This document shows positions 9,902 to 10,707 of a DNA stretch of 35,994 bases, piece by piece (within the stretch, counting starts at the first letter, position 1; the number at the start of each line of letters is the position of its first letter). This DNA comes from Escherichia phage PhiR44_2: the sequence record PV340564; one strand, given 5' to 3'. Below the pieces are notes generated by a model that saw only the letters and a list, made by a program, of their open reading frames with translations, had not been told where the DNA came from and did not search any database. A program made the position numbers and the translations under genes.

Positions 9902-10212
9902 ACAGAAAACAGAAACAAGAGTTGAAATACTTCTTACGTAAAGAAATTGCCAGGCTTGAAGATGCAGAGTCACAATCATCAGAAATTCCGTTCGGAATGG
10001 ATATCAACGACGCCCGTATGCTCCAGGCATACCGCATAGCTCAGGCTGCACTACAGGCAAAACCGTCAGATGGACTGGTTAGAGCAGTACATTTCTATGA
10101 ACAGGTAAAGCGTGAGAATCCGCCAGTCGAAACCGGAGCATGGAAAGACGCTGTTGACTGGGTGCTCAAAGAGGCTTGCCAGTCTGTAAACATTGGCATC
10201 AAAGGAGAGTGA
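9898..10212 (+). CDS. Hypothetical protein (104 aa)
   Basis: ATGA-coupled ORF; ends ...NIGIKGE. Confidence 0.6.
10191..10212 (+). repeat. 22-bp direct repeat, left copy (CATTGGCATCAAAGGAGAGTGA)
   Basis: 21/22 identical to 10686-10707; each copy encodes the C-terminus and stop of one gene plus the RBS of the next. Confidence 0.6.
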
Positions 10213-10214
10213 GA

Positions 10215-10706
10215 ATGCAAATTTCACCGGTTACTCTTCGTGTTGCGAAGGCGTTTATATCCAGACATCACCGACACAATAAACCCCCGGTGGGGCATAA
10301 ATTCAGCATTGGTCTGAGAAATGATGCCGGAGAATTGATAGGTGTGGCGACAGCCGGTAGACCTGTTGCACGACATTTGGACGATGGATTAACGCTTGAA
10401 GTAAATCGCACATGTACCACAGGAGAACGCAACGCTAACAGCGCGCTTTATGGTGCTGTCTGGCGGGCAGCAAAGGCTATGGGTTATCAACGTTGTATTA
10501 CGTACACCCAGGCAGATGAATCAGGAGCATCTCTCCGCGCAGCTGGTTTTGTTCGTGTGAAAGAGCTTCCTCCAAGAAAAAGCTGGGCGGAATCAAGCGT
10601 CGCCCTGCGGAGTAAACGCGATCCGGTCGGAAACGGTGGTGTTCCTCGTGTGCTCTGGGAAATCAGGAGAATGAGTACCACTGGCATTCGCATCAAAGGA
10701 GAGTGA
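10215..10706 (+). CDS. Hypothetical protein (163 aa), flanked by the 22-bp direct repeat
   Basis: ORF 10176..10706, ATG at 10215 after AAAGGAGAG; ends ...IRIKGE. Confidence 0.6.
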   Translation: MQISPVTLRVAKAFISRHHRHNKPPVGHKFSIGLRNDAGELIGVATAGRPVARHLDDGLTLEVNRTCTTGERNANSALYGAVWRAAKAMGYQRCITYTQADESGASLRAAGFVRVKELPPRKSWAESSVALRSKRDPVGNGGVPRVLWEIRRMSTTGIRIKGE

Positions 10707-10707
10707 T
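10686..10707 (+). repeat. 22-bp direct repeat, right copy (CATTCGCATCAAAGGAGAGTGA)
   Basis: See left copy. Confidence 0.6.

Follow-up and report, generated by a model that had tools for sequence, protein, structure and literature searches.

Introduction

Short conserved boundary sequences, or linkers, between phage genes belong to the modular theory (Susskind & Botstein 1978; Clark et al. 2001, on HK620; both as summarised in PMC3029335), and this route of exchange is contrasted with illegitimate recombination because most joints show no such sequences (PMC3029335). A repeated gene end is known from mycobacteriophage Island3, in which gene 68 has its last 18 residues and ~50 bp in common with the upstream gene 67 (Pope et al. 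2011, PMC3029335), while Brujita has one copy and no gene 68 and the authors propose recombination between the repeats (PMC3029335). Here we describe a 22-bp direct repeat that brackets a gene of the XF1762 family in the DNA of Escherichia phage PhiR44_2 (record PV340564), a stretch of 35,994 bp which in its whole length is called the window, and we compare this locus with the described systems. The window represents a P88-like (Xuanwuvirus, P2-family) E. coli prophage, P88 being the closest sequenced phage.

In T4-type phages, mobile regulatory cassettes (PeSL) are described as mediating gene insertion, deletion and replacement (Arbiol, Comeau, Krisch et al. 2010, PMC2839356), and Rad52-like recombinases drive relaxed homologous recombination between temperate phages (PMC3945230). 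In the exo-xis region, the gene ea22 closes a conserved block and is followed by a variable gene set (PMC8614690). All compared Ea22 proteins end in K/R-G-E despite their divergent C-terminal domains, an ending whose significance was reported as unknown (Dydecka et al. 2020, PMC7093339). Our literature search found no description of this particular junction or of XF1762. The repeat is probably a short gene-end junction at which homologous recombination reassorts left and right accessory genes, and as such the feature is a clear example of known phage mosaicism which involves no new mechanism.

Results

Two copies of the repeat in the window

Searching the window for the repeat gave exactly two matches, CATTGGCATCAAAGGAGAGTGA at 10191-10212 and CATTCGCATCAAAGGAGAGTGA at 10685-10706, both on the + strand and of the general form CATT(G/C)GCATCAAAGGAGAGTGA. 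The copies agree at 21 of 22 positions, with 17 identical bases at the 3' end, and their starts are 494 bp apart; none of 100 dinucleotide-preserving shuffles contained a match, even with up to 3 mismatches tolerated. An earlier note on this DNA, made from the sequence alone, was thus right about the existence of a 22-bp direct repeat and about the coordinates of its first copy, while the second, which it had placed at 10686-10707, lies one base further to the left.

Both copies stand in the same reading frame relative to their respective genes. Copy 1 reads N-I-G-I-K-G-E-stop in the frame of the 9898-10212 gene and copy 2 reads G-I-R-I-K-G-E-stop in the frame of the 10215-10706 gene. The sequence AAGGAG is found 6-7 nt 5' of the next ATG in each copy (10202-10207 for the ATG at 10215, 10696-10701 for the ATG at 10708). 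That each copy holds a shared end peptide, a stop and the Shine-Dalgarno (SD) sequence of the next gene, as the note had claimed, was therefore borne out. The features of the bracketed region are as follows.

9898..10212, + strand: 104-amino-acid (aa) gene, function unknown; the 3' portion (10069-10212) is shared with ead/Ea22-like 3' ends and with the P88 orthologue
10191..10212, + strand: junction copy 1; holds the final (N)IGIKGE codons of the 104-aa gene, its TGA stop and the SD for the XF1762 start at 10215
10215..10670, + strand: body of the bracketed XF1762-family gene; Mom-like GNAT fold, ends ...RVLWEIRR
10671..10706, + strand: borrowed tail MSTTGIRIKGE and stop, fused in frame to the XF1762 body
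10681..10706, + strand: junction copy 2, including the repeat at 10685-10706; (T)GIRIKGE-stop and SD for the start at 10708; equals the lambda ea22 end
10708..10971, + strand: 87-aa gene, PHROG 1714, function unknown; right-hand partner

The junction as the end of lambda-type ea22 genes

The 26 nt made up of copy 2 and the 4 bases before it, CTGGCATTCGCATCAAAGGAGAGTGA, match the 3' end of ea22 of phage lambda without a difference, and Ea22-like genes of the P22-like phage VSe13 and of phage 689R5 close with this sequence as well. The XF1762 gene of the P22-like phage Kapi1 ends in the junction too, and the gene upstream of it ends with a degenerate version, GCTGGCATCAAGGAGTAG. The junction is common to lambdoid, P22-like and P2-family prophages, and lambda itself retains it at the end of ea22 with no start codon after it. 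The sequence of copy 1 also ends the orthologous genes in loci L005, L007, L009, L014 and L090.

The exact 17-nt core was present in at least 120 IMG/VR contigs. Alignment of 93 unique 180-nt contexts revealed conservation only between about -30 and +3, counted from the stop, with background on both sides, and gave the consensus GCCGCTGGCATTCGCATCAAAGGAGAGTGA-T-ATG, the ATG standing one base after the TGA in about 90% of them. Beyond the SD, in the upstream direction, the identity continues for 13-20 nt, third codon positions among them (94% of the contexts have C at -22, 98% have T at -19). The central AAAGGAGAGTGA combines SD and stop, and diverged versions, for example the one encoding HGKGE in 689R5, retain this part alone.

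Among 129 instances in phage contigs the junction, ~33 nt long, formed an island of identity between unrelated flanks. The DNA on its left fell into 16 classes and that on its right into 23, joined in 64 combinations, and a single class had up to 9-10 partners. Among the matches listed, the genes ending in the junction were Ea22-like genes with diverse bodies, XF1762 and one HNH endonuclease, and those starting after it belonged to 16 unrelated families, including the 87-aa protein, XF1762, a dATP/dGTP pyrophosphohydrolase-DUF551 protein, a ClpX-zinc-finger protein and a DpdA-like 'queuine tRNA-ribosyltransferase' family protein. The repeat therefore consists of two copies of a widespread gene-end junction and is no private duplication at this locus. 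The earlier note would have favoured chance had the repeat been missing from all relatives and had the two C-termini proved structurally unrelated; the repeat is present in relatives and at the lambda ea22 end, next to many partners.

The same nucleotides offer a reading of the K/R-G-E ('+GE') end of Ea22 proteins (PMC7093339), which is the same feature as the junction described here: judged from the codons (AAA/AGA-GGA-GAG-TGA), this end appears to be the AAGGAG Shine-Dalgarno sequence and stop that serve the next gene, and is at the same time the junction core.

Some further observations concern the members of this family. A fourth upstream class would be a holin-like gene in locus L025, which a peptidase-like gene follows (both assigned by eye); only the 17-mer is shared and this may be a chance match. 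The VSe13 gene vse13_029 (locus L002, 419-1045) is annotated 'HNH endonuclease', but it begins almost exactly as the Ea22-like protein of Kapi1 does at its N-terminus, and the label is probably a misannotation. In a tblastn search with two query proteins, one of them from vse13_029, 47 of the 120 listed junction loci were matched by one of the two. A scan of species-representative genomes with the 26-mer was uninformative as to taxonomic spread, since 33 of its 36 matches (loci L136-L171) were lambda DNA in assemblies of unrelated organisms: these contigs, from Streptococcus, Streptomyces, Prevotella, Shewanella and others, were 99.5-100% identical to lambda, several being about 48.4-48.5 kb long and of low coverage, and represent contamination of public assemblies.

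Natural variants and breakpoints

Locus L007 (strain ECA64) has the order left gene, junction, XF1762, junction, 87-aa gene, with two copies as in the window. The earlier note had suggested looking for relatives with one copy and no intervening gene, and such a relative is L005 (strain SCPM-O-B-9427), which shares the backbone of L007 and in which the left gene is joined through a single junction to the 87-aa gene, XF1762 being absent. This single copy is the G variant and is followed directly by tATGGCAACTTT. The alignments of L005 and L007 overlap by exactly 22 bp. Their identity is 99.2% on the left and 95.9% on the right, while compared with the window L005 is 99.3% identical on the right (87-aa gene) and 91.7% in the left module. 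Such discordant identities indicate flanks with different histories, as expected from exchange at the junction, and on these alignments L005 is best read as a recombinant of an L007-like left part with a window-like right part and not as a simple deletion. L006 has a larger deletion in the same backbone. P88 carries neither XF1762 nor the 87-aa gene, and just within the junction, after GGCATCAAAGGAGA, its sequence departs from the window.

The E. coli survey covered 5,426 complete genomes. The one-copy junction of L005 type was complete in 44 of them, O104:H4 strains included, and a 621-nt query spanning both copies and XF1762 was matched over at least 80% of its length in 129. Partial matches stop at the edges of the repeat, namely at positions 58-61 and 87 of the one-copy query and at positions 73-78 and 539-546 of the two-copy query, and some matches of the one-copy query consist of the 35-nt junction alone. 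Other genes between copies, for which the note had also proposed a search, were likewise found: in the IMG/VR locus L076 a ClpX-zinc-finger gene and an Ea22-like gene are bracketed by two junction copies 843 bp apart, and phage 689R5 has three junction-type ends inside 2 kb. From the one-copy and two-copy sisters, the 22-bp overlap and the discordant flanks we infer recombination within the junction.

A comparable bracket occurs in the Klebsiella prophage or phage of locus L134, where XF1762 lies between copies of a different 28-nt repeat (CGTGCCGCCGCTGGCATCAAGGTGGAGG / CGTAGC…; 26 of 28 identical, spacing 485), which corresponds to the local Ea22 tail, AAGIKVE…. By its sequence it appears to be an independent replicate of the arrangement. 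In the Klebsiella loci L133-L135 (about 3296-4881) a KwaA/KwaB pair (Kiwa defence) adjoins the XF1762 cassette on the opposite strand.

The bracketed gene and its tail

The bracketed protein (163 aa) matches NCBIfam NF045478 (XF1762) with 204.7 bits against a cut-off of 50, over residues 3-136 alone, and the identical RefSeq protein WP_001167293.1 is called XF1762 family protein. Alignment of the 120 best of 5,663 homologues indicated that the conserved body stops at RVLWEIR[R/A], beyond which the sequence is hypervariable. Most homologues at about 85% identity have 153-154 aa, end no more than 2 residues past RVLWEIR[R/A] and have no MSTTGIRIKGE tail. In the AlphaFold model (45 homologues; mean predicted local distance difference test score, pLDDT, 84) residues 145-151 form the last confident strand; the block means fall to 64 for residues 151-160 and 45 for residues 161-163, residues 157-161 being below 50. 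As the tail lies outside the NF045478 match, where homologue ends are hypervariable and pLDDT is low, it is not part of XF1762; MSTTGIRIKGE is the end of an ea22-type gene, joined in frame to XF1762 and foreign to its fold. Outside the tail the 104-aa and XF1762 proteins are unrelated (BLASTP E = 2.1).

A sequence search with this protein against solved structures gave no match, and a fold search with the model did: the top PDB match was phage Mu Mom (8bv8, E = 8.8e-8, TMq 0.71), ordinary GNAT acetyltransferases coming next. PHROG 1384, 'Mom-like DNA modification protein', also matches (E = 4e-42), and Pfam Mom PF25680 remained below its gathering score (22.4 vs 27.1 bits, profile positions 3-124 of 202). 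Mom of phage Mu is a DNA adenine carbamoylmethyl/glycyl transferase. Its helix-turn-helix (HTH)-like insertion (residues ~175-209) and the catalytic R111/S124 are essential for activity (PMC13219725). Since the XF1762 protein has only 163 aa and its alignments end at profile positions 124/202 (Pfam Mom) and 159/245 (PHROG), the HTH-like insertion is probably missing from it. On the structural model the cargo has a Mom-like fold and is possibly a nucleic-acid or other acyl/aminoacyl transferase. PADLOC gave no defence-system match for the cargo or the neighbouring genes.

Genomic setting and neighbouring genes

P2-like phages have a variable cargo region between replication and portal genes. 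The 494-bp unit sits in this region, with replication/partition genes on one side and the portal gene on the other. Positions 9500-11100 of the window are 100% identical to the prophage adjoining pdxB in E. coli AVS0756, and the gene coordinates match the RefSeq annotation of that prophage. The surrounding features are as follows.

5286-8153: replication endonuclease
8230-9189: ParM
9203-9505: StbB-like partition protein
9569-9901, + strand: ClpX zinc-finger-only protein, 110 aa, Pfam PF06689, E = 7e-18
11006..11026, + strand: intrinsic-terminator-like hairpin and T-run, closing the 9569-10971 gene string
3' of the terminator at 11006-11026, opposite strand: portal gene

Between 9569 and 10971 a promoter/terminator scan gave no convincing site of either kind; promoter-like or terminator-like sites are absent at 10191-10215 and 10685-10708, and the single strong terminator of the + strand is that at 11006-11026. 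An Rfam scan found no RNA family near the repeat or the 9569-10971 genes, its matches in the early region of the prophage being isrK at 4370-4444 and a C4 antisense RNA at 4480-4567 (+).

The last 48 codons of the 104-aa gene (10069-10212) match the 3' ends of ead/Ea22-like genes, with partial matches covering that part alone, and the gene is 93-97% identical in P88, L005 and L007. In a profile search its protein matched PHROG 26213/660, and its C-terminal region (residues 36-104, or the last 35) is common to PHROG 26213 and 250. No Pfam family was matched at E <= 0.1, hence not the Ead/Ea22-like PF13935 either; the gene shares a DNA module with the Ead/Ea22-like family, of which it is at most a candidate member.

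In other phages (VSe13, 689R5) the 87-aa gene stands directly 3' of an Ea22-like gene, joined by the same junction. Its class (D0) occurred 11 times after Ea22-like genes and 9 times after XF1762 among the matches listed. D0 and D7 (97 aa, PHROG 2821) are unrelated genes which both begin with ATGGCAACTTT (M-A-T-L) and then diverge; junction homology can thus run into the next gene, as in L090 (about 9991-10020) and at 10708-10719 of the window.

The 110-aa protein encoded at 9569-9901 is essentially a ClpX-type C4 zinc finger with no ATPase, and a homologue comes after the ea22-tail junction in L076. By its sequence, it could interfere with the binding of ClpX substrates or adaptors. Further to the right, window positions 11501-12096, with an open reading frame at 11519-12082 (+, 187 aa), are missing from P88, L005, L006 and L007 and apparently from AVS0756 too, where the portal gene lies 614 nt closer. 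This distribution points to a second cargo insertion beside the portal gene. The 187-aa protein matched only PHROG 5091 (unknown function), and no Pfam or PADLOC match was obtained for it.

Discussion

How the arrangement may have arisen

We propose that both copies would descend from one portable junction, consisting of the stop of a lambda-type ea22, the ~8 codons before it (…A/T-G-I-R-I-K-G-E) and the SD embedded in them, with the next ATG usually one base past the stop. Common to unrelated early accessory (exo-xis) genes of temperate enterobacterial phages, this ~33-nt sequence would act as a homology patch at which the left gene and the right gene are reassorted by homologous recombination. 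XF1762 would have lost its own 3' end, been fused in frame to the junction and been placed behind another junction-ended gene; fused to one copy and preceded by another, it would behave as a cassette of 494 bp, which could be gained, lost or replaced by a crossover within the repeat with frames and ribosome-binding sites left intact. The P88-like prophage of the P2 family thereby has these modules in common with lambdoid phages. The exchange would be effected by RecA or by annealases of the Red/RecT/Erf type, the latter being encoded just upstream of ea22 in lambdoid phages. As to the fusion of the tail, its plausible source is the end of a neighbouring ea22-type gene, reached by in-frame deletion or by recombination, since several such ends can lie within 2 kb.

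What boundary sequences are expected to show, namely an island of identity within unrelated flanks, a position at a gene boundary and interchangeable left and right partners, was found at this junction. The earlier note had read the repeat as the mark of a module exchanged by recombination at a short conserved junction, and the variants, the breakpoints and the reassortment of partners support it. Its title speaks of a footprint of cassette insertion or duplication, which should be taken neither for a target-site duplication of the transposon type nor for a gene duplication.

Several points weigh against recombination at the junction. Its 17 identical bases are fewer than the commonly cited minimum for efficient RecA recombination, so that the rates of exchange may be very low or phage annealases may be needed, and to our knowledge P2-type phages encode no annealase. 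Part of the conservation (AAGGAG, stop, ATG) has a translational reason, and conservation alone is therefore no proof of a role in recombination. The lambda junction with no start after it would fit a relic junction and a protein role for the tail equally well. Finally, the instances were picked by the exact 17-mer with close prophage relatives included, and their counts are not counts of independent events.

Alternative explanations

Conservation could reflect function only, that is, the SD, the coupling of stop and start and perhaps a useful peptide, with joints made by illegitimate recombination of which those at gene boundaries survive. Such an account draws on the fact that AAAGGAGAGTGA is SD and stop with an ATG one base on in about 90% of contexts, that diverged junctions such as HGKGE of 689R5 keep this core alone, and that every compared Ea22 protein ends in +GE (PMC7093339); illegitimate recombination is moreover the majority view for most phage joints (PMC3029335). 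It does not, however, explain why 13-20 extra bases upstream of the SD are conserved, third codon positions included, why the same nucleotides stand on proteins as unrelated as XF1762 and an HNH endonuclease, or why, in hundreds of genomes, breakpoints fall on the two edges of the island; tailless homologues of XF1762 function, and lambda retains the junction without a downstream start. We consider it unlikely. A further reading takes the junction as a portable 'universal adaptor' under selection, made up of tail codons, SD, stop and start, and the early accessory region as an integrase-free cassette array serviced by the Red/RecT/Erf functions encoded upstream; in a variant the GIRIKGE peptide would itself be functional, for instance as a targeting or degradation tag. 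If true, genes for DNA modification and counter-defence, such as the Mom-like XF1762, the DpdA-like transglycosylase and the dNTP pyrophosphohydrolase, would be plugged in and out even across families, from lambdoid to P2-like phages; we offer this as a speculation with a rather small chance of being correct.

A footprint of a mobile element or site-specific system, in which the repeat would be a target-site duplication or an attC/att-like site and XF1762 would be moved by a dedicated recombinase, is suggested by one gene being exactly bracketed by direct repeats and by the presence of the cassette in different phage families. But the 494-bp unit encodes a GNAT-fold protein alone and neither a transposase nor an integrase, terminal inverted repeats and hairpin-forming structures are absent, 22 bp is longer than typical target-site duplications, and more than 100 other, unbracketed genes end in the junction sequence; HNH genes occur at only 1-2 of the 120 listed loci and the 'HNH' of VSe13 is probably Ea22-like. 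We hold such a footprint to be very unlikely. An integron attC site would be an imperfect palindrome that folds as a hairpin, with an integrase close by; the junctions fold no better than shuffled sequences (z = 0.2 and 0.07), and no integron integrase lies in the neighbourhood, as the prophage integrase is about 9 kb upstream, at the pdxB-side prophage end (AVS0756, identical over this stretch). A moron was set aside, the cassette having no promoter or terminator of its own around it. Exchange driven by a homing endonuclease was likewise rejected: a true HNH gene ending in the junction was present in L121 alone among the matches listed, the HNH gene of L099 being 5 kb away, and no general association is seen. 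A tandem duplication, with the two genes as diverged paralogues and the repeat as a remnant of their common 3' end, would account for the same C-terminal peptide in the same frame, but the proteins are dissimilar outside the tail (BLASTP E = 2.1), one has a GNAT fold while the end of the other matches PHROG 26213/250 and ead/Ea22-like 3' ends, and XF1762 homologues generally have no tail, so that this origin has hardly any probability left. Tightly packed phage operons commonly have gene ends that contain an SD, and chance likeness of two gene ends with strong ribosome-binding sites was considered for that reason; with 0 of 100 shuffles matched at 3 mismatches and with the 22-26-mer recurring at homologous positions in lambda, P22-like and P2-like phages, it is extremely improbable. 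A junction at which homologous recombination reassorts neighbouring genes remains the reading that we prefer.

Significance and comparison with known systems

Most phage mosaic joints show no visible homology, and clear exchanges at short boundaries are few and cited singly. The ea22 junction is unusually well populated, with at least 16 downstream and three upstream gene families; it is present in hundreds of E. coli genomes, and offers a natural system for measuring the minimum homology that phage or host recombinases need to shuffle genes. It also accounts in a simple way for the '+GE' end of Ea22 proteins, which had been published without an explanation. For annotation it calls for caution, as the last ~10 residues of XF1762-type and other proteins of this region are junction and not protein family.

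Morons, as Juhala et al. (2000) are said to have described them, carry their own promoter and terminator. The XF1762 cassette resembles them as a single accessory gene whose presence varies between conserved neighbours, in a part of a P2-family prophage known to be variable, but it has neither promoter nor terminator and relies on translational coupling within an operon. PeSL cassettes of T4-type phages reportedly flank variable genes and are said to be promoter and stem-loop elements in intergenic DNA; the ea22 junction, in contrast, is without promoter or structure and is a translational signal within codons. Genes 67 and 68 of Island3 are almost the same in anatomy, in that the inserted gene repeats the end of the upstream gene and that a sister exists with one copy and no insert. 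The Island3 case, however, concerns a single phage pair with a private repeat, whereas the ea22 junction is a widespread multi-gene family and is shorter (22-33 bp). As in the linkers of the modular theory, a short gene-boundary sequence is conserved amid unrelated modules, whole genes are exchanged and partners reassort freely; unlike those linkers, the ea22 junction lies inside coding sequence, as a C-terminal tail, doubles as the SD of the next gene, and crosses from lambdoid/P22-like phages to a P2-family prophage.

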